Positions 47,939 to 56,163 of a stretch of DNA of 56,163 nucleotides are shown here, piece after piece. A model generated the notes under the pieces. It saw only the letters and a list, made by a program, of their open reading frames with translations, did no database searches and was not told where the DNA came from. This stretch comes from Planctomycetaceae bacterium (GTDB taxonomy: Bacteria; Planctomycetota; Planctomycetia; Planctomycetales; Planctomycetaceae). Position numbers and translations under genes: made by a program. How positions within the stretch are numbered: the stretch's first letter is position 1; the number at the start of each line of letters is the position of its first letter. The stretch spans positions 1-56,163 of the forward strand of contig JADHNX010000001.1 of the NCBI GenBank assembly GCA_016779365.1, written 5' to 3'.

Positions 47939-49384
47939 ATGCTGAAACTTCCATCACGTCGAGATTTCTTCACTCGCTCCGCTGGCGGGTTTGCCAGTGT
48001 CGCTTTGGGTGCATTGCTCGCCGAGGAACTGCAAGCTTCACCCGAATCGAAAACTGCGATTAACCCGCTCGATCCGCTACGTGTGCGTTTGCCACACATC
48101 GCCCCTCGGGCCAAACAGGTGATCTTCCTCTTTCAATATGGAGGACCTTCAACATTCGACCTGCTGGATTACAAACCGGAGTTGATCAAACTCGACGGCC
48201 AACCCGTGCCGGAATCGTTCAAGCGGCACAACGACGAAGTTGGCGGAGTCTTCAATCACTGCAAAGACGAATTGATGGCCGGGCCGTGGAAGTGGGCTCA
48301 GCATGGTGAGTCCGGCCGCTGGTTCTCGGACCTGCTGCCGCATACGGCCCGCCACGCCGACGAACTTTGCGTGGTCCGTTCGATGTTCAGCGAGAGCTCC
48401 AACCACGCACCGGCAACGTATCTGATGAACACGGGAGCGATCCTCGGCGGCCGGCCGAGTCTTGGTTCGTGGGTGACGTACGGGCTGGGTTCGGCAAACC
48501 AGAATCTCCCCGGCTATGTGCTGCTGTACCAGGTCGCCGGGCTGGGCGGTTCGGCAAACTGGAGCAATGCCTTCCTGCCAGCGGCGTTTCAGGGGACTCA
48601 GTTCCGACACGAAGGCTCGCCCGTGTTGAACCTGTCCCCGCCGGAGCGATTGGCAGAAGTGCAGCGTTCGACGCTCGATTTCGCACAGGCACTGAATCGC
48701 CGGCACGCGGAGAAGCGGCCCGGAGTGCTCGATCTCGACGGCCGCATCGCTTCTTACGAACTTGCCTTTCGGATGCAGTCGGAAGCGCTCGAAATCGGCG
48801 AGCTGTCACAGGAAACTCAGGCGACTCAGGACGCATACGCAGTCCATGACAGCAACACGGCAAAAGCTAAATACGGACGCATGTGCCTGCTGGCACGGCG
48901 GCTGATCGAGAAAGGTGTCCGCTTCGTTCAAACATACAATTCCGTGGACAAGTTGGGTTGGGACGGCCACGACAACAACATTGACTATCATCGCCGCAAC
49001 GCCGCCCAGACGGACCAGCCGATTGCCGCGTTGCTTACCGATCTCAAACAGCGCGGCCTACTCGATACGACGCTGGTCATCTGGGCAGGCGAGTTTGGTC
49101 GCACACCGATGAAGCAGGGGGGCAGCGGCCGCAACCACAATCCCTACGGCTTCAACATCTGGATGGCTGGCGGCGGAGTAAACGCCGGAGCATCGATCGG
49201 AGCCACCGACGAGATCGGCCTCAGGGCGGCCCGGCAACCTCAGCCGATCAAGAACCTGCACGCAACCATCCTGACGGCGCTGGGACTCGCTCCCGACGAC
49301 CTGTTCTTCGAACATCAAGGCCGGCAGGAACGCCTCACCGGCGTCGCTCAAAGCTGGAAGCTGATTCCCAACGTGCTGGACTGA
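47939..49384 (+). CDS. DUF1501 (sulfatase-fold) protein
   Basis: RRDFF Tat-like N-terminus. FQYGGPSTFDLLDYKPE. AGEFGRTP...GRNHNPYGFNIWMAGGGVNAG..GATDEIG. Confidence 0.85.
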   Translation: MLKLPSRRDFFTRSAGGFASVALGALLAEELQASPESKTAINPLDPLRVRLPHIAPRAKQVIFLFQYGGPSTFDLLDYKPELIKLDGQPVPESFKRHNDEVGGVFNHCKDELMAGPWKWAQHGESGRWFSDLLPHTARHADELCVVRSMFSESSNHAPATYLMNTGAILGGRPSLGSWVTYGLGSANQNLPGYVLLYQVAGLGGSANWSNAFLPAAFQGTQFRHEGSPVLNLSPPERLAEVQRSTLDFAQALNRRHAEKRPGVLDLDGRIASYELAFRMQSEALEIGELSQETQATQDAYAVHDSNTAKAKYGRMCLLARRLIEKGVRFVQTYNSVDKLGWDGHDNNIDYHRRNAAQTDQPIAALLTDLKQRGLLDTTLVIWAGEFGRTPMKQGGSGRNHNPYGFNIWMAGGGVNAGASIGATDEIGLRAARQPQPIKNLHATILTALGLAPDDLFFEHQGRQERLTGVAQSWKLIPNVLD

Positions 49385-49880: not shown

Positions 49881-50717
49881 TCAGCCCTGCCACTGGCGAC
49901 AATGGGTTTCGCGGAAGTCGCACATCGAGCACGTCCAACCGGGCCGATACACGAACCGATTGGACTGTAGATCATCGACGTAGGCGCGGATCACGGCGAA
50001 TAGCCGCCGAAAGTGTGCATCGCCGCGGGCGGGGTAACGGTGTGTTTCAACCTTCGGGGTCTTCGTCTTGATGAGGCTGCGGATTTGCAGTTCTTGTTCG
50101 GTCGCACCAAACACGTGCCGGAATGCGTAGGCGTAACAGGACAACTGAACTTCGTGCGAAATCTCCAGCGGTGCGCTCGATCGCGCTGCCGTCTTGAAAT
50201 CAACAATCGTCAGCCCGGCTTGCGATTCGAGAACAAGATCGACGAATCCAAACAACGCCACGCCCAAGTCCTCCCCGGTCTCCGGATCGACCAGCGGACA
50301 CTCCAGCGGCCTTTCGACGGCGATTGGGAAGCCTTCGTTGGCATCTCGTGTATCAAGATAGGCTTCGACCAATCCGATCGTTTGATGTTTCAGCACCGCT
50401 TCGTCGTTGAACGAAGCGAACTGCATATCTTCAGCAGCGACCGCTTCGTCCCAAGATCCGGAAATATGCTGCGCGACATCTGTGGCTGACAGATGGTCGC
50501 CGTCCTGTCGATGGCGATAGAAAAACTCCAAGCCATCGTGGACGCGCTTGCCAAGAAACAGGCTCGGCGATGTCGGCTCCTTGATGCCTTCCACGTAACG
50601 CAGCTTGAACTTTAACGGGCACGACAGCCAGGTGTTCAATCTGGTGGGCGAAACGTAATCGAGAAGTCCCGAACTGTCATCGCGCGCACGATCAGCACGG
50701 GTAATTGTTGCGATCAT
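49881..50717 (-). CDS. PD-(D/E)XK nuclease, RecB/Cas4-like with 4-Cys cluster
   Basis: The ATG at 50717 is preceded by GGAGAA. N-terminus YVSPTRLNTWLSCPLKFKLRYVEGI. GFVDLVLE...IVDFKT (D...D/ExK). QLSCYAY (QxxxY). C-terminal CSMCDFRETHC together with the N-terminal Cys gives a Cas4/AddB-type Fe-S signature. Confidence 0.8.
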   Translation of the reverse strand: MIATITRADRARDDSSGLLDYVSPTRLNTWLSCPLKFKLRYVEGIKEPTSPSLFLGKRVHDGLEFFYRHRQDGDHLSATDVAQHISGSWDEAVAAEDMQFASFNDEAVLKHQTIGLVEAYLDTRDANEGFPIAVERPLECPLVDPETGEDLGVALFGFVDLVLESQAGLTIVDFKTAARSSAPLEISHEVQLSCYAYAFRHVFGATEQELQIRSLIKTKTPKVETHRYPARGDAHFRRLFAVIRAYVDDLQSNRFVYRPGWTCSMCDFRETHCRQWQG

Positions 50718-50809
50718 ATTGTTCTCCAAATGAGAAACCCCGACAGCGCACTGGTTCGTAGCCATTGCGTTGACAGGGCTTTGTCGTGATAGGTTGTCGA
50801 GCTATCCAC

Positions 50810-51478
50810 CTAAGCGACCGTGCATTCGCCGGCCAGCAGATTGAGCGTGGTGTCGCCATCGACGGGAAGGCCACGCAACCAGCGGGTGAACTGGTGGACC
50901 ATCAGTCCGGCCGCGATACTGGCTGCGTAGATCGTGCTACGGGACGTGCAACTACCGGTCTGAGCATCTGCCGGGGCAAACAACGTGTTGGCGTAGCGGC
51001 CGAATGTGTCGGCATCGTTGGCAGCGAGGATACGAATGGTTTCGCCCAACATGCGGCCGTCCACCCAGAACCGGCAGTGGTTTGCCACAGATCGCCAGAT
51101 AGCAGCCCGCGCAGAGATTGAATCGACACAGCAAAACACCGCTTCCCCGATCTGCTGCTTTGCACGGTAGCGATCCTGAATCGTCGCAACGTGAATTGAA
51201 GCATCGAGACGACGAATGGCTGTAGCCGTTGCAAGCACTTTCGGCTGGCCTACATCGTTAGCCGTGTAGCCTTGGGTCGTGACGTTCGTCACATCCACTG
51301 TGTCAAAATCGACCAACTGAATGCGCGGAGCGCCAATGGCAGCGAGTTGCAACGCCACTTGACGACCAATGGCGCCGACGCCGATGACGGTGGTCGCGAC
51401 TTCGGCGAGGCGATCGATCGGTACAAGGTCCCGCTGTCGTGTGAATCGATCTTGCGGAGTGATCTCAGGTGCGTTCAT
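50810..51478 (-). CDS. ThiF/MoeB/HesA-type E1-like adenylating enzyme (minimal, 222 aa)
   Basis: [41 protein letters not shown] is a Rossmann/ATP motif. The ATG overlaps the JAB stop (ATGA). Confidence 0.85.
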
Positions 51479-52179
51479 AGTATCAGTTCCTCCGCTTCTT
51501 CTTCCTCCGCCGCATAGTCGAACCAGCTTTCATACCAGGCGTCGGTCGGTTCCTCGTCAAATGGCGAGGCAAGGACCGGCTCCAATGTCGAAGCCATGCC
51601 GCGTCTCAGTTGTTCGGCGTGTACGTTGGCCAGATACTCCTGCTCCCAGGTGTCGGGTTCAGTGGCAGAGAATGGGCGCGAGTAATCGACCCCGACGGGA
51701 ATTTCAACTTCAGCGCATGGCCCGACGTTGAAGCGCAGCCGAGCGTACGACTGGCCTTCGCAATCGAGAATGAACATCACAGCCCAGTCGGCGCGGCCGA
51801 AAACGCGCTCGAACGTCTCCTCGTCCGTCATACTCGGACGCGGGCAGTCTCCGGGATGCGTATGCACCCAGATCCGGGCGAATTGCTCGGGACGCCGCTC
51901 CGCATCTACTTGCCGGTCAAAGAAATCGGCGACCGACTCGTCGTCGAACGCAACATGCGCCCATGAGCACACTTGCTTGACGAGTTGAATGTCTTCGACG
52001 AACAGCAGGTCGTCGCTCGCCGCGATCCCGAAGCCGCCGACTTCCGTGTCTCCATAATCACGCAGGAACAGCAACTTGGCCCACGCGGTGGGGCTGAATC
52101 GGAGCGTCTGCGTCGTCGCGACTGTGGCTGCTTCCGTCACTTTCCGTTTCTTCTGCTTCTTCTTCAAGTGCTTGGTCAT
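51475..52179 (-). CDS. JAB/MPN (JAMM) metallopeptidase; start uncertain (ATG at 52179, 52206 or 52233)
   Basis: EVGGFG Glu motif and JAMM motif [15 protein letters not shown] (HxHx7Sx2D). Confidence 0.85.
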
Positions 52180-53113
52180 GGCAATCAGAACACCTTTCGT
52201 TGTCATTGAGGCAGCCCTGGCAGAGTTCGGCATCACAACGCGAGCAATGCTTCATGCAGCCGCTGCAATGATTGTCATCGCAGCCTTCGCAGCGCGTCGT
52301 GCATTCGTTGCAGAAGATGCCGTCGCAGCCGGGGCAGTTGTAGTAACATTCGCCGCACACCGTCGTCTCGCACTTTTCGCACGTCCACCGCTCGTCGTCG
52401 CAAACCGTGCTGCCGCAGTCGGCGCACTCCACGCCATGCCAATCCGATAGTGAAACGAACGGACTGCCCGAGTTGTACGTGCGCAGCAAGTTGGCGACGA
52501 TCAGGAAGAAATCGAGCAAGCAGCCCCGCTCCAGCGCTTTGCGAATCGGCTGATGGCCGTCGCCTTCACAAACCGCTTCGTCTTGCACGTGCGGATGCGT
52601 GACGCTTTCGTTCGCGGCGGCCGGTTTGGGATCGACCGCAATCACGCGGTAGTTGGACGGATGGCCTTCCAGCAAGTCGGTCCAGTCGAGGCGAATCTCG
52701 AAGGGGCCCAAGTAGACGCTATCCAGTTCAATGGCTTCCGTCGTGACCGACAGCGTGCGTTGCCTTAGATTGAAGGCGACATCTTCAAATTCATCGTGCA
52801 GCGCAACCAGGTCAGAATAGATGTCGCCCACCGTTGCAATGCGATCTTCCCTGCCCGAGGGTCGAAGCCCGTGGTCGAGTTCGGCAACCTCAAGGCGAAG
52901 TCGCTCGACAGCCAAACGCAGGTCGTGGTTCAGCCGATTGGTGGCCACGTTCCAGCCGCGCTGCGTAGCTCTCTGCAATTTGCGGTTCAGCGTTTCACAT
53001 CGTTGCCACGTTGCCGCTGGCAGCGCAACGCATTTGTCGCGTGTAGTTTTCGAGTGGAGCCGCTCATGGATCGCGATCGCCATCCGCATGAGCAACCGTT
53101 GTTGTCGCGTCAT
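52058..53113 (-). CDS. E2 (UBC)-like protein with helical N-terminus and a C-terminal 21-Cys poly-CxxC metal-binding domain plus acidic tail
   Basis: [14 protein letters not shown] (nt 52568-52597) resembles the HPN/HPH-x(6-7)-Cys active-site flap of E2 enzymes and is preceded by a beta-meander-like segment. Residues 230-312 carry ten CxxC pairs. The gene position between Ubl and JAB/E1 fits an E2. Confidence 0.65.
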
Positions 53114-53189: not shown

Positions 53190-53414
53190 TTACGAGTTCG
53201 CGCCCTCGATCTTCGTCGGCGTGATGGAGATGCGATCGCCTTCACACAAAACTTGATCTGCCGGGCACGGCTGACGATTAACGCGGATCAGATAGTGGCT
53301 CGGCTTGGTGGAGCCGATTTGACGCTCGAACAGTTGGGCGACTGTCGTGCCGTCGGCGACGTCCACGTAGTCAGCGAATCCGCCACCGTCGTTGTTGATG
53401 ACCAGAATCTTCAT
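53190..53414 (-). CDS. Ubiquitin-like beta-grasp protein (ThiS/MoaD-like), 74 aa
   Basis: The ATG is preceded by AAGGA. MKILVIN...[12 protein letters not shown]...YLIRVNRQP...[19 protein letters not shown] has the size and hydrophobic pattern of a beta-grasp fold and a Gly near the C-terminus. It lies directly upstream of E2-JAB-E1. Confidence 0.7.
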
Positions 53415-53463: not shown

Positions 53464-53652
53464 TCAAGTCGGTTGCCGCACCTGCCGTCGTCGCTTTCGA
53501 CGTCGCGAGGCGGTTTTGACTTCGCGCCCTACTCGCTGTTGGCCACCGCGCAATTGCTTTAGCAGGTTCGAATCAACGTTGAGGGCAGCGGAATCATCTG
53601 TCGTGGCGGCAGCGCTAAGTTGATGTCGTTGCTCAAGCGACGACCGGTTCAT
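53464..53652 (-). CDS. 62-aa hypothetical basic protein
   Basis: The ATG at 53652 has GGAGG 7 nt upstream. It overlaps the end of the HTH gene by 20 nt. It has an Arg/Lys-rich tail and no recognisable motif. Confidence 0.35.
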
Positions 53653-53848
53653 AGCGAGGCCTCCGCGTTCCTGTTTCGTGACGCTGGGCCTCTAATTCGT
53701 CCCAGTCGATGACGTAGGGTCCGAGTTCGTCGGAATCAGGATCGAGACAGTCGCCGGGTTCGGCGAGCAGGAACCCGAGGCGTTTGATGGTGGAAACGGT
53801 TTCGCCCGTGGCGCGGGCGACGGCGCGGTCGAGATCGGCTTGTTTCAT
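53633..53848 (-). CDS. 71-aa protein with probable helix-turn-helix
   Basis: DLDRAVARATGETVSTIKRLGF fits an HTH pattern. GGAG lies upstream of the ATG. It is the first gene after the terminator. Confidence 0.45.
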   Translation of the reverse strand: MKQADLDRAVARATGETVSTIKRLGFLLAEPGDCLDPDSDELGPYVIDWDELEAQRHETGTRRPRYEPVVA

Positions 53849-53956: not shown

Positions 53957-54205
53957 TCAGTCGAGCGGTGGGAACAGCCAGTGCGTGTGCAACCACTCGG
54001 ACTCCGCGTTGAGGGCGTCGCTTCGGCGAGCAAATGGGCCGAGCCGTGGCCCGCCTACCGGCGCCAGATCAGCGAACCACCGACCGTCTTGATCGGGCTC
54101 AACGTGTGAACCACGAGAAATGGAAGCTCGCCCGATTTGGGCGAGGTCGATGGTTTCGGCGTAGATGCAGCGGATTGTGCCGTCGGGAGAGATCAGAAGT
54201 TGCAT
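53957..54205 (-). CDS. 82-aa hypothetical protein
   Basis: The ATG at 54205 is 10 nt after the upstream stop. MQLLISPDGTIRCIYAETIDLAQIG...WFADLAPVGGPRLGPF...AESEWL. The longer track ORF (to 54412) overlaps the previous gene. Confidence 0.5.
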   Translation of the reverse strand: MQLLISPDGTIRCIYAETIDLAQIGRASISRGSHVEPDQDGRWFADLAPVGGPRLGPFARRSDALNAESEWLHTHWLFPPLD

Positions 54206-54215
54206 GGCTGTATCT

Positions 54216-55160
54216 TCACTTGGGCGAACGAATGACACGTCGCCGCGGTCGATCGACGAGAAGTCCGTCCAGCACCGATTGGACGCCGGAAAGCTGCGTG
54301 GCAACTTGCTGCCGCAAACCTTCGTTGTCGCGCAGTTCCTGAGGTTGGACACCATCGACAATCTGACGACATTGCGAAACGAGTGAGTCCAGTTGATCGC
54401 ACGACCGCACATTCAGTGCGCGGAAACGATCGAAAAACTCACGCAAGTTTCCCACCGCCGTGTCGCGGAATATCTTGGGCTTGCCGTCTTCGTGGCCGCC
54501 CAACCGCTCGGTGAGATGCGACACAAGTTGCGACAACTCCTCGGTGAATGCCTGCTCGGCCATCTGCACGGCTTCATCAAAACGGGCCTGCACGCGGCGG
54601 CACTCTTGCTCGTACAATTCTGGGTTCAGCTGCTGCAAATACGATGGTGGTTCGACGCTGGGAAAATCCCAAGAGACATCGAACATCCCGGCGAGCGATG
54701 CTGGATAGTCGGCTTCGTTGTACAGACTGCCCAGCCGCTCTTGCGCAGCCGCTTTGAGCGCTGCATATCGCTCGTCGAGTCCGGCCACGGCTTCGTCGAG
54801 TTCATCCTTGAAGACGCGCATCTGATCCTGAAACGTCTCGAGCGCGTCCTGCCGCACCAGACGAATACCCGGCTCGGGATAGGGCAAACTGAGCGACGTC
54901 CAGTAGGCACGCGTGCGATTCCGAACGGACGTCACGGCCTTGAACCGCGGGTGCTTGGTATCAAGCAGCTTCTTGCCGGCGCTGAGAAACTCGCCTTCGG
55001 CTCCAAACGATTCGGCCGCCTGCGCCTTCTGCGCAGAGGAAAGTGTTTTCCGTGTGCCGAACCACGTGAAGCTGACGCGTGTGGCGCACATGGTGGCTCG
55101 CATCCGATTGGCGGGGCTGGTGCTGTGCGTGGGTGGTTGTGTCGTCGATGTTGCTGTCAT
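54216..55160 (-). CDS. 314-aa helical hypothetical protein (reminiscent of DUF3150-type mobile-element proteins; unverified)
   Basis: GGAGAG lies upstream of the ATG. The protein looks long-helical, and the block RVSFTWFGTRKTLSSAQKAQAAESFGA...LSAGKKLLDTKHPRFKAVTSVR is what I recall from DUF3150-like proteins. This rests on recollection only. Confidence 0.4.
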   Translation of the reverse strand: MTATSTTQPPTHSTSPANRMRATMCATRVSFTWFGTRKTLSSAQKAQAAESFGAEGEFLSAGKKLLDTKHPRFKAVTSVRNRTRAYWTSLSLPYPEPGIRLVRQDALETFQDQMRVFKDELDEAVAGLDERYAALKAAAQERLGSLYNEADYPASLAGMFDVSWDFPSVEPPSYLQQLNPELYEQECRRVQARFDEAVQMAEQAFTEELSQLVSHLTERLGGHEDGKPKIFRDTAVGNLREFFDRFRALNVRSCDQLDSLVSQCRQIVDGVQPQELRDNEGLRQQVATQLSGVQSVLDGLLVDRPRRRVIRSPK

Positions 55161-55187: not shown

Positions 55188-56163
55188 TTAGTTGACACTG
55201 GGATCGCGCGGAATCTTCCGCCGCGACTTGCCTGTTGAGCCGCTTGCGTTGGTGTAGATGCCTGACTTGTCTGCGGACAGGCAGCGGCCGCTGGCCCAGC
55301 TGCGCAGTTGATCGACTGACTCGGCTGCAGTGATCGCAACCGGCACGATGTTCTGGGCAGCCTGTACCAGCGGCACGTCGAGCAACGCCGCGAGGCGACA
55401 ACAAGCTCGAACTTCTGCTCCTGTCCAGTTCTGATCGTCGGGCAATCGCTGATCGCCTTCGATGCCGAACAGGTCGAGATACATTCGCCAGATAGCTTGC
55501 TTCTGTTCCTTGCCCGGAAGATCAAGGAAGAACAAACCGTCAAAGCGTTCCGCGCGACAGAACTCGGGTGGCAGTTTCGTAACATCGTTCGCCGTGCAAA
55601 CGACGAAGACATCCGACTCATGATCGTTGAGCCACGAGAGCAACGAACCGAACATCCGCGCCGAAACGCCGCTATCGGTTTGGCCGGAGCCGGCCACGCC
55701 GCTGAGTGCCTTTTCGACTTCATCGACGAAGAGCACGCCCGGTTGCATGGCATCGACGATGCGAAGCGCCCGTCGCGTGCGTTCCTCGGTTTGGCCAACA
55801 AGCGAACCCATCAAGGCGCCGACATCGAGCGTCAGCGTCGGCCTGCCAGTCTCATTGCCGAGCGCTTTGCAAAACGCGCTCTTTCCTGTGCCCGGCACGC
55901 CCAGTAGCAACACGCCTCGCGGCTTGAGTGCCCGTGTGCTGCCTTGGTGTGGTCGCATCGCGCGCAGGCAAAACGCCTTCAACGATTCGAGTCCACCGAG
56001 ATCGGCGAATGATTCGCTTCCGCAGTGCAATGAGAGCAGACCACTTTTGGTCAACGTCTGCGACTTGAGTTCCCAGATCGAAGTTGGTTCGACGCGTCCA
56101 TGCCGTACCAGCGACAGACTGAAAGCTCCTTCGGCTTCGTAACGCGTGAGTCCGCAAGCCGCG
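55188..56163 (-). CDS. Classical-clade AAA+ ATPase (Cdc48/FtsH-like module); N-terminus off-window
   Basis: Walker A GVPGTGKS. Walker B VLFVDEVEK. Sensor-1 VVCTAN. Arg-finger region RAERFD. LDLPGKEQKQAIW helix. My manual translation shows the frame stays open upstream of the TTG at 56054 to the window edge. Confidence 0.85.
   Translation of the reverse strand, partial: AACGLTRYEAEGAFSLSLVRHGRVEPTSIWELKSQTLTKSGLLSLHCGSESFADLGGLESLKAFCLRAMRPHQGSTRALKPRGVLLLGVPGTGKSAFCKALGNETGRPTLTLDVGALMGSLVGQTEERTRRALRIVDAMQPGVLFVDEVEKALSGVAGSGQTDSGVSARMFGSLLSWLNDHESDVFVVCTANDVTKLPPEFCRAERFDGLFFLDLPGKEQKQAIWRMYLDLFGIEGDQRLPDDQNWTGAEVRACCRLAALLDVPLVQAAQNIVPVAITAAESVDQLRSWASGRCLSADKSGIYTNASGSTGKSRRKIPRDPSVN

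Follow-up and report, generated by a model that had tools for sequence, protein, structure and literature searches.

A repeated CxxC array, predicted to bind zinc, fused to a probable E2 in a planctomycete ubiquitin-like conjugation cassette

One question about the bacterial ubiquitin-like protein (Ubl) systems Bil, type II CBASS, and Bub, which recent work has established as functioning kin of the eukaryotic ubiquitin pathway, is how they choose their targets without E3 ligases. It is raised in concrete form by a locus in a Planctomycetaceae bacterium (GCA_016779365.1), where the stretch that we analyzed, hereafter the window (56,163 nucleotides [nt], positions 1 to 56,163 of contig JADHNX010000001.1), encodes on its minus strand a 351-amino-acid (aa) E2-like protein with a cysteine-rich array at its C terminus (52058..53113), within a cassette of the order Ubl-E2-JAB-E1. 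A first-pass annotation of this DNA had proposed that the array could turn the protein into a single-chain E2-E3. What, then, is the array, and what could it do for the E2? We describe here a strongly conserved CxxC repeat whose pattern points to a chain of interlocked zinc sites, and we propose, at what we regard as even chances, that the protein is the E2-type carrier of a Ubl cassette borne on serine recombinase elements, with the array as a rigid, acidic, lineage-tuned zinc-rod adaptor arm for docking a partner or target. We hold the structural half of this proposal with far more confidence than the functional half.

The array spans aa 228 to 312 (52178..52432), as delimited by conservation, structure prediction, and the spacing of its cysteines. 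Translation bore out the composition first reported for it, with residues 230 to 312 corresponding exactly to nt 52426 to 52178 and comprising 83 residues, 21 cysteines, and ten CxxC pairs. The pairs start at residues 230, 245, 253, 260, 268, 275, 283, 290, 298, and 308, and the gaps between them are, in order, 11, 4, 3, 4, 3, 4, 3, 4, and 6 residues; the spacing of 3 to 6 residues given earlier therefore holds for the later gaps but not for the first. In an alignment of 261 homologs, many of them less than 50% identical, each of the 20 CxxC cysteines is 95 to 100% conserved. The CxxC array is real and strongly selected, far beyond chance. The one additional cysteine and the terminal histidine had also been put forward as zinc ligands, but C238 is a cysteine in only 46 of the 261 homologs and His312 a histidine in 142, and neither is likely to be a ligand; the 20 conserved CxxC cysteines are enough for five Cys4 sites without them. 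The homologs found by sequence search share a common architecture of about 350 aa, which indicates that the reading frame is right.

Structure prediction gave the array a regular anatomy. In an AlphaFold2 (AF2) model of the full-length protein, the cysteine region has a predicted local distance difference test (pLDDT) score of about 87 to 92, and residues 222 to 318 modeled alone (pLDDT 85.5, about 90 in the array) form five short beta-hairpins with a CxxC knuckle at the tip of each. These knuckles, K1 to K5, are C230/233, C245/248, C260/263, C275/278, and C290/293; four further pairs, L2 to L5 (C253/256, C268/271, C283/286, and C298/301), lie in linkers of 4 to 5 residues between the hairpins, and the last pair, L6 (C308/311), opens a helix.

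Four independent observations, namely the gap pattern, the variable number of pairs, their co-loss, and in-register matches to cross-brace domains, point to a staggered cross-brace of five Zn(Cys)4 sites, in which each knuckle i would have linker i+1, and not the pair next to it, as the partner in its zinc site. The sites would then be 230/233 with 253/256, 245/248 with 268/271, 260/263 with 283/286, 275/278 with 298/301, and 290/293 with 308/311. The gap pattern 11,(4,3)n,4,5-6 is kept in members with 8, 10, 12, and 14 pairs, and the first gap of 11 equals 4+4+3, matching a degenerate linker pair with the nonconserved C238 at its first position. An array that opens with a knuckle lacking a prior linker and closes with a linker lacking a next knuckle is what staggered, and not sequential, pairing predicts. 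Homologs that have lost K5 (C290/293) have also lost or damaged L6 (C308/311) while keeping L5 (C298/301); this co-loss is clear in P0227, P0234, P0244, P0251, and P0252 and partial in P0074, P0101, P0239, and P0120, and in P0227 and P0234 the terminal gap after the loss is again exactly 11. Several of these losses are independent, since the nearest relatives have intact arrays. Whole 15-residue units have also been gained or lost (four sites in P0130, six in P0167, and seven in P0203), and a homolog on a viral contig (locus L077) has an array of 21 pairs, about twice as long as usual, with alternating 4/3 gaps, a final gap of 4, and two irregular gaps. With 4, 5, 6, 7, and about 10 units seen, the lattice seems to tolerate both gain and loss of repeat units. 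Together with the AF2 model and the weak in-register matches described below, these patterns support the first-pass suggestion of about five interleaved, treble-clef-like zinc sites.

Which known zinc domains does such an array resemble? With the array profile, the best sequence matches in PDB were MID1 B-box1 (2ffw; E = 0.0017, 21.7 bits), the WDFY3 FYVE domain (E = 0.0064), and the TRAF3 RING, which reaches E = 0.013 at most. Three pairs are in register in the MID1 alignment, where K2 and L3 coincide with the two Zn1 pairs of B-box1 and K3 with a Zn2 pair. Foldseek searches of PDB with the array alone recovered no match at E ≤ 1e-3; in the fold searches as a whole, the best local structural matches were FYVE, PHD, and Siva-like cross-brace folds. 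Those to FYVE-type domains cover about 47 to 57 columns, with a root mean square deviation (rmsd) of 2.3 to 3.1 Å for 2zet and 1joc and 3.9 to 6.3 Å for other FYVE domains. The B-box1, FYVE, PHD, and RING domains share with the array a knuckle, a hairpin, a CxxC at a helical turn, and adjacent pairs binding different zincs, but they hold two zincs in a closed unit, whereas the array would chain five (4 to about 10 in relatives) with all-cysteine ligands. A B-box1 has the pattern C-x2-C-x7-10-C-x2-C-x4-5-C-x2-C-x3-6-H-x2-8-H, with two zincs in a cross-brace; the array lacks the histidine pair and any match to the Pfam zf-B_box model. Neither the RING nor the B-box models of Pfam matched even at E ≤ 10 in the 30 members scanned, and the identification of the array as either domain, which the first-pass annotation had raised, is not upheld. 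We rejected a RING finger in particular: the array has 20 cysteines in a continuous run and no conserved histidine, as opposed to an eight-ligand C3HC4-type unit with two zincs, and every RING test failed.

The nearest named relative, judged from sequence, is the C-terminal cysteine-rich region of Siva. The Pfam Siva family (PF05458) scores 18.2 bits in this protein (E = 0.0022) against a gathering threshold of 26.2 and is found below threshold in 17 of the 30 members, with a best E value of 4e-4. Alignment by hhalign to residues 122 to 153 of human SIVA1, a sequence entered by hand, gave 32 ungapped columns (E = 1e-4, probability 57%), and the spacing CxxC-x4-CxxC-x3-CxxC-x4-CxxC is common to the two and in register. 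Siva is described as a zinc-containing protein with 13 cysteines, a B-box-like region, and a zinc-finger-like region (PMC3935273), and it bridges the E3 RAD18 to PCNA (PMC4068132). It differs from the array in having about 13 cysteines versus 20 ligands, in being eukaryotic, and in lacking a fused E2; no solved Siva structure turned up in the searches made. The sole significant structural similarity that we found was to predicted structures of phage and giant-virus proteins in BFVD, where ten matches to the array reached E ≤ 1e-3. Among them are a protein of Klosneuvirus (TMq 0.70; rmsd of 2.4 Å for 87 columns) and one from a phage that bears the annotation amidoligase, and a Clandestinovirus Siva-like protein fits the array model with an rmsd of 2.3 Å over 67 columns. 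An array of this type is, by these models, widespread in uncharacterized viral proteins, which differ from the planctomycete protein in being fused to other domains; the likeness is one of predicted structures only. The CHY/CTCHY zinc region of Pirh2 (RCHY1; 2dkt), in which several zincs sit on successive hairpins in a beta-spiral, was also among the weak fold matches (E = 0.068, probability 0.28); the likeness is that of a multi-zinc stack of short hairpins within a ubiquitination enzyme, and the difference lies in spacing and ligand set.

These comparisons also bear on whether the region is merely a metal-binding filler of a nonubiquitin type (DnaJ-type, metallothionein, Fe-S ferredoxin-like, or rubredoxin-like) that is unrelated to conjugation, an alternative already raised, for the first two of these types, with the first description of the array. 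The region is very rich in cysteine, the identity of the metal cannot be read from sequence, and the automatic labels in BFVD include one "prokaryotic metallothionein" and one HypA-like "Hydrogenase/urease nickel incorporation protein." On inspection, however, neither the DnaJ_CXXCXGXG, the metallothionein, nor the ferredoxin models of Pfam matched at E ≤ 10 in the 30 members. DnaJ-type repeats were rejected on the further ground that only the first knuckle reads CxxCG and CxxCxGxG does not occur, and metallothioneins on the ground that the array consists of regular CxxC pairs in hairpins predicted at a pLDDT of about 90, with no CxC or CC clusters; nor is there a CxxCxxCxxxC motif. Given this regular fold and the constant fusion to an E2-like core in a Ubl operon, we consider a filler highly improbable.

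The proposal also depends on the domain to which the array is attached. No part of the protein is better conserved than this core (aa 95 to 227; 52433..52831), which is delimited by AF2, Foldseek, and conservation and has a mean pairwise identity of 0.53. Within it, AF2 predicts for aa 95 to 210 a helix, a beta-meander, a loop with H173-P-H175, and then C182 followed by two helices. H173, H175, and C182 are conserved in 260 to 261 of the 261 homologs, with the cysteine seven residues past the HPH; the resulting HPH-x6-Cys (52568..52597) has a histidine in place of the asparagine of the E2 HPN motif and contains the putative catalytic cysteine. Foldseek searches of PDB with the whole model (mean pLDDT 78.8) gave no match at E ≤ 1e-3, but about 38 of the top 50 matches were E2s with TM-scores up to 0.53, led by UFC1 (E = 0.14) and followed by UbcH5, Cdc34, Rad6, Ube2W, and Ubc13. 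In an hhalign comparison with UbcH5b, HPH fell on HPN and C182 on C85, the catalytic residue (E = 0.12 to 0.16, not significant), and, at the same nonsignificant score, a 10-residue segment of the core fell on LLCDPNPDDP. A second hhalign target, a six-member E2 alignment entered by hand, likewise gave the register expected of an E2 without reaching significance, and we counted neither comparison as proof. Curated E2 profiles in Pfam, NCBIfam, and PADLOC (UQ_con, Prok-E2_A-E, PRTRC_A, and Cap2 E2) did not match, and a PDB profile search with the full-length alignment found weak zinc-finger and coiled-coil matches and no E2. Because fold, motif, and gene position agree, and not on the strength of any single significant score, we regard the middle domain as a probable, highly diverged E2; the fold and the synteny make the protein a plausible E2 of a Ubl-E2-JAB-E1 operon, as the first-pass annotation had it.

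If the middle domain were instead noncatalytic, the protein could be a zinc-finger scaffold for the E1, the JAB, and the Ubl, as the want of a significant sequence or fold match to E2s might be taken to suggest. An invariant cysteine seven residues after an invariant HPH, a UBC-like order of secondary structure, the dominance of E2s among the fold matches, and the location of the gene at the E2 position of comparable cassettes all argue otherwise, and we give this alternative very little weight.

What the array does for the E2 turns largely on its surface. The non-Cys positions of the array have a mean pairwise identity of 0.18 to 0.23, compared with 0.53 in the core, and among the 41 such positions in aa 246 to 301 (mean pairwise identity 0.18) none has an entropy below 1 bit. 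Charge is conserved instead: 99.6% of members have an acidic array, and the median net charge is -10. The ends of the array are better conserved than the middle (W225, G227, D232, and G234 at one end and L302, E306, and R307 at the other). The ratio of nonsynonymous to synonymous substitutions (dN/dS) in the array is 0.06 to 0.23 among close relatives and 0.17 to 0.44 among distant ones. The low values among close relatives imply that the surface is not free to drift, and we rejected diversifying selection on it, as the entire range of 0.06 to 0.44 holds no sign of positive selection.

Conservation limited to the cysteines and the charge speaks against a fixed, RING-like surface for activation of the E2 core, and this is where the idea of a single-chain E2-E3 meets most of its difficulties. 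Under that idea, the array or its first B-box-like module would fold back on the Ubl-charged E2 and activate discharge onto lysines. Its attractions are the cross-brace topology, with MID1 B-box1, a FYVE domain, and the TRAF3 RING as best matches; the RBR and TRIM entries among the weak fold matches; the better-conserved ends, which could pack on the conserved core; and a cassette in which no separate E3 gene is found. The 41 unconserved mid-array positions beside so conserved a core and the failure of RING and B-box models and of any PDB fold to match significantly speak against it, and a unit number ranging from 4 to about 10 is hard to reconcile with a fixed E2-binding geometry. None of the characterized E2s of Bil and CBASS, moreover, is known to require an E3. 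We therefore find the E2-E3 of the first-pass annotation unsupported in this form and think it doubtful.

The same conservation pattern would suit a passive spacer or oligomerization rod, or else a zinc or redox switch, in which oxidized thiols or lost metal would unfold the array and so gate the E2, neither with a specific partner. Only cysteines and negative charge are kept and the length varies; the basic N-terminal helices (+5) could pair with the acidic array (-10) within or between chains; and in P0121 two copies are fused in tandem. Such a role sits less easily with the purifying selection on non-Cys positions (dN/dS of 0.06 to 0.23 among close relatives), and the cassette contains no redox-partner or metal homeostasis gene. 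We see it as a possible explanation, though a distinctly less probable one than an adaptor.

The adaptor reading follows from the acidic array, from purifying selection within lineages combined with divergence across the family, from the absence of a separate E3, from the bridging role of Siva, and from the occurrence of a similar array fold in a putative phage amidoligase. If the pathway resembles those of Bil and type II CBASS, the JAB protease would trim 0 to 2 residues after the KIEGA end of the Ubl, the E1 would adenylate the trimmed end, and Cys182 of the UBC-like core would receive the Ubl as a thioester. A metal-stapled repeat would make up the C-terminal 85 residues, its sites interlocked as a continuous cross-brace, and this rigid acidic rod could serve the E2 by docking a partner or target particular to the lineage. 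The array would then resemble an E3 in recruiting, not in being an allosteric activator of the RING type, and any E3-like activity is hypothetical. The metal, the thioester chemistry, and the adaptor role are what we infer, and the ligation topology is drawn from patterns in the sequences.

Several points weigh against this reading. The zinc ligation map derives from co-loss, gap arithmetic, and in-register matches and was not read from a structure, and two homologs run counter to it, P0146 having lost C290/293 while keeping C308/311 and P0024 the reverse. The predicted template modeling (pTM) score of the full-length model is 0.46, making the geometry between domains uncertain. The E2 assignment has no significant score behind it (hhalign E = 0.12 to 0.16, Foldseek E = 0.14, no profile match). 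Finally, the want of a conserved surface would be just as compatible with a passive spacer or with a metal or redox sensor. A bolder extension, which we think unlikely, is that a hitherto unrecognized class of repeats, a length-variable, metal-stapled "zinc ladder," serves as the substrate-selecting arm of the E2, making a bacterial E2-E3 hybrid which, with a Cdc48-like AAA+ ATPase, would constitute a tag-and-unfold pathway of planctomycete elements and some phages.

The remainder of the protein differs from the core and array in charge. AF2 places three long helices (residues 3 to 23, 33 to 52, and 55 to 83) in the N-terminal region (aa 1 to 90; 52844..53113), which has a net charge of +8 here, a median of +5, and a positive charge in 95% of homologs, as well as the highest dN/dS of the protein (0.23 to 0.46). 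Unlike these basic helices, the E2 core, the array, and the tail are acidic; the linker and C-terminal tail (aa 313 to 351 and the stop codon; 52058..52177) have a pLDDT of 40 to 51 and a net charge of -9.

How widespread is this architecture? A word-indexed search returned 574 homologs of the 351-aa protein, and an exhaustive profile search returned 2,870 representative clusters (clusters at 50% identity) at E ≤ 1e-3, 1,179 of them at E ≤ 1e-30. Among the matches listed, nearly all are about 350 aa long with the same full architecture, and the array is fused to an E2-like core in a Ubl operon context throughout the family. The fusion had at first been called unusual; for this family it is the norm. 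Apart from the sub-threshold Siva match, the protein belongs to no Pfam, NCBIfam, PADLOC, or PHROG family. Its distribution is nearly confined to the Planctomycetota (Pirellulales, Planctomycetales, Gemmatales, and Phycisphaerae), with several cassette copies per genome in some metagenome-assembled genomes (MAGs), including at least five on different contigs of MB_PLM_2; Lignipirellula cremea, Rubinisphaera brasiliensis, and Planctomicrobium sp. SH527 are among the carriers that can be cultivated. A few members depart from the common form: P0121 (733 aa) consists of two complete E2-array proteins fused in tandem, P0250 (447 aa) has an irregular array of about 23 CxxC pairs, and P0135 (783 aa) has about 395 additional N-terminal residues.

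The interest of the family lies in an E2-type enzyme, represented by more than 1,000 unannotated 50%-identity clusters, that always comes with its own predicted multi-zinc module, and in a possible answer to how an E2 of an E3-less bacterial system finds its partners. Recruitment of targets or partners by the array would amount to E3-like specificity built into a bacterial E2, in a form both simple and testable; should the array turn out to be a passive spacer, the cassette would nevertheless extend the catalog of prokaryotic Ubl systems by a new lineage. The array is also of structural interest, as a repeat whose units would be held by staggered zinc sites and could be added or removed, with a spacing common to eukaryotic Siva.

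The cassette itself is, as far as its genes allow us to judge, a new variant of the bacterial Ubl-E1-E2-JAB theme. Along its minus strand, the window encodes, in this order, AAA+, 314-aa protein, 82-aa protein, 71-aa protein, Ubl, E2-array protein, JAB, E1, and PD-(D/E)XK nuclease. The order Ubl-E2-JAB-E1 recurs in 58 to 68 of 76 related loci, and contig ends account for most of the gaps; the block of AAA+, 314-aa, 82-aa, and 71-aa genes recurs in 38 to 56. The ThiS-like Ubl (74 aa; 53190..53414; 68/76 loci) has a weak ThiS match (E = 4.7e-4) and ends KIEGA-NS. Its C terminus, an invariant TP(T)KIEGA followed by 0 to 2 variable residues in 62 of 66 loci (zero in three) and by longer extensions in the other four, bears the hallmark of a pro-form that the JAB trims, probably exposing a Gly-Ala rather than a Gly-Gly end. 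The JAB/MPN+ metalloprotease (51475..52206; 68/76 loci), identified by Prok-JAB (E = 1.1e-4) and PADLOC JAB models, carries a 14-residue segment of the form HxHx7Sx2D; its probable start is the ATG at 52206, although the mechanically called open reading frame (ORF) begins at 52236. The ThiF/MoeB-type E1-like adenylating enzyme (222 aa; 50810..51478; 58/76 loci) matches ThiF at E = 3e-24 and the PADLOC E1-E2 models in their E1 part.

Bil (BilABCD), type II CBASS (Cap2/Cap3), and the PRTRC-type ThiF/E2/JAB cassettes likewise combine a small beta-grasp Ubl with a trimmed C terminus, a ThiF-like E1, a UBC-like E2, and a JAB/JAMM protease. The present cassette differs from them in the basic N-terminal helices and predicted C-terminal five-zinc array of its E2, in usually being preceded by a Cdc48-like AAA+ ATPase and three uncharacterized genes, in the Gly-Ala end of its Ubl, and in being almost confined to the Planctomycetota. 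In PADLOC and NCBIfam, models of those systems left the E2 unmatched and matched the E1 and the JAB weakly; with NCBIfam, the E1 scored 36.7 bits against PRTRC_ThiF (cutoff, 144.75) and the JAB scored 18.9 against Cap3 (cutoff, 200). The 2006 Iyer survey and the papers on Bil and Bub make no mention of planctomycetes or of a Cys-rich E2. In the papers examined, we found the cassette undescribed; the main survey of RING-like domains in prokaryotes, that of Burroughs, Iyer, and Aravind (2011), lies outside this set, and an earlier mention there is possible.

The conserved cassette contains no further gene that is Cys-rich or E3-like. Upstream of the Ubl, the conserved proteins of 71 aa (53633..53848; 56/76 loci), 82 aa (53957..54205; 47/76 loci), and 314 aa (54216..55160; 47/76 loci), the last of them helical, have no match in any family library scanned and are candidate partners or targets of the system. 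Beyond them lies a Cdc48/proteasomal-ATPase-like AAA+ ATPase (55188..56163; PF00004, E = 1.2e-24; 38/76 loci), whose 5' end is cut by the end of the window; its complete form has 493 aa (L001, 6444-7925), and it matches phage family phrog_8638 at E = 3.3e-64. From this neighborhood, it may be that Ubl tagging is coupled to an unfoldase. In L001 and L002, the AAA+ gene is preceded by a DUF2997 gene and a 122-aa ORF, the latter presumably DUF1257-like, a guess from its sequence that Pfam does not confirm.

Cassettes of this family adjoin large serine recombinases, and their downstream cargo is variable and often defense-like. Loci L001 to L004 (those of P0098, P0070, P0115, and P0085) have one or two serine recombinases a few kb upstream and, as cargo, DUF4365, SMC-like ATPases, PRTase-CE plus ORC-CDC6-like genes, and a Cap4 nuclease nearby. 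Bacterial Ubl conjugation cassettes are known from mobile or defense-rich DNA (PMC10557695), as here, and the cassette resembles the backbone of a mobile element of the integrative kind. In the window, the E1 gene is followed by a PD-(D/E)XK (Cas4-like) nuclease (49881..50765; PDDEXK_1, E = 1.5e-32; 4/76 loci) with a C-terminal Cys cluster, which is restricted to this window and its closest relatives. The next gene (47939-49384, plus strand), which we take by eye to be of the DUF1501 type, looks chromosomal, and an edge of the element probably lies between 49385 and 49880; no tRNA genes occur within the window. The sole relative in IMG/VR, L077 (9212-12397 of IMGVR_UViG_3300027852_000001, a low-GC sequence of 168 kb), carries the same Ubl-E2-JAB-E1 cassette with an E2 of 432 aa, and upstream of it a gene that we guess from its sequence to be RNA-ligase-like. 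As this is one locus in all, we set aside a viral origin of the family.

The E2-array gene at its 3' end and the JAB gene at its 5' end share about 120 to 150 nt, read in different frames (52058-52206, minus strand), so that a 13-residue segment of the E2 tail overlies a 19-residue segment containing the first strand of the JAB. A docking motif in the conserved tail (QP.RVGE.AVPA) was considered and set aside, because the motif overlies that strand in the other frame and is absent in some homologs; conservation of the tail may be a by-product of the JAB frame. In the same overlap, the acidic linker EEEAEETE of the E2 overlies the lysine run KKKQKKRK of the JAB, and these oppositely charged peptides could interact.

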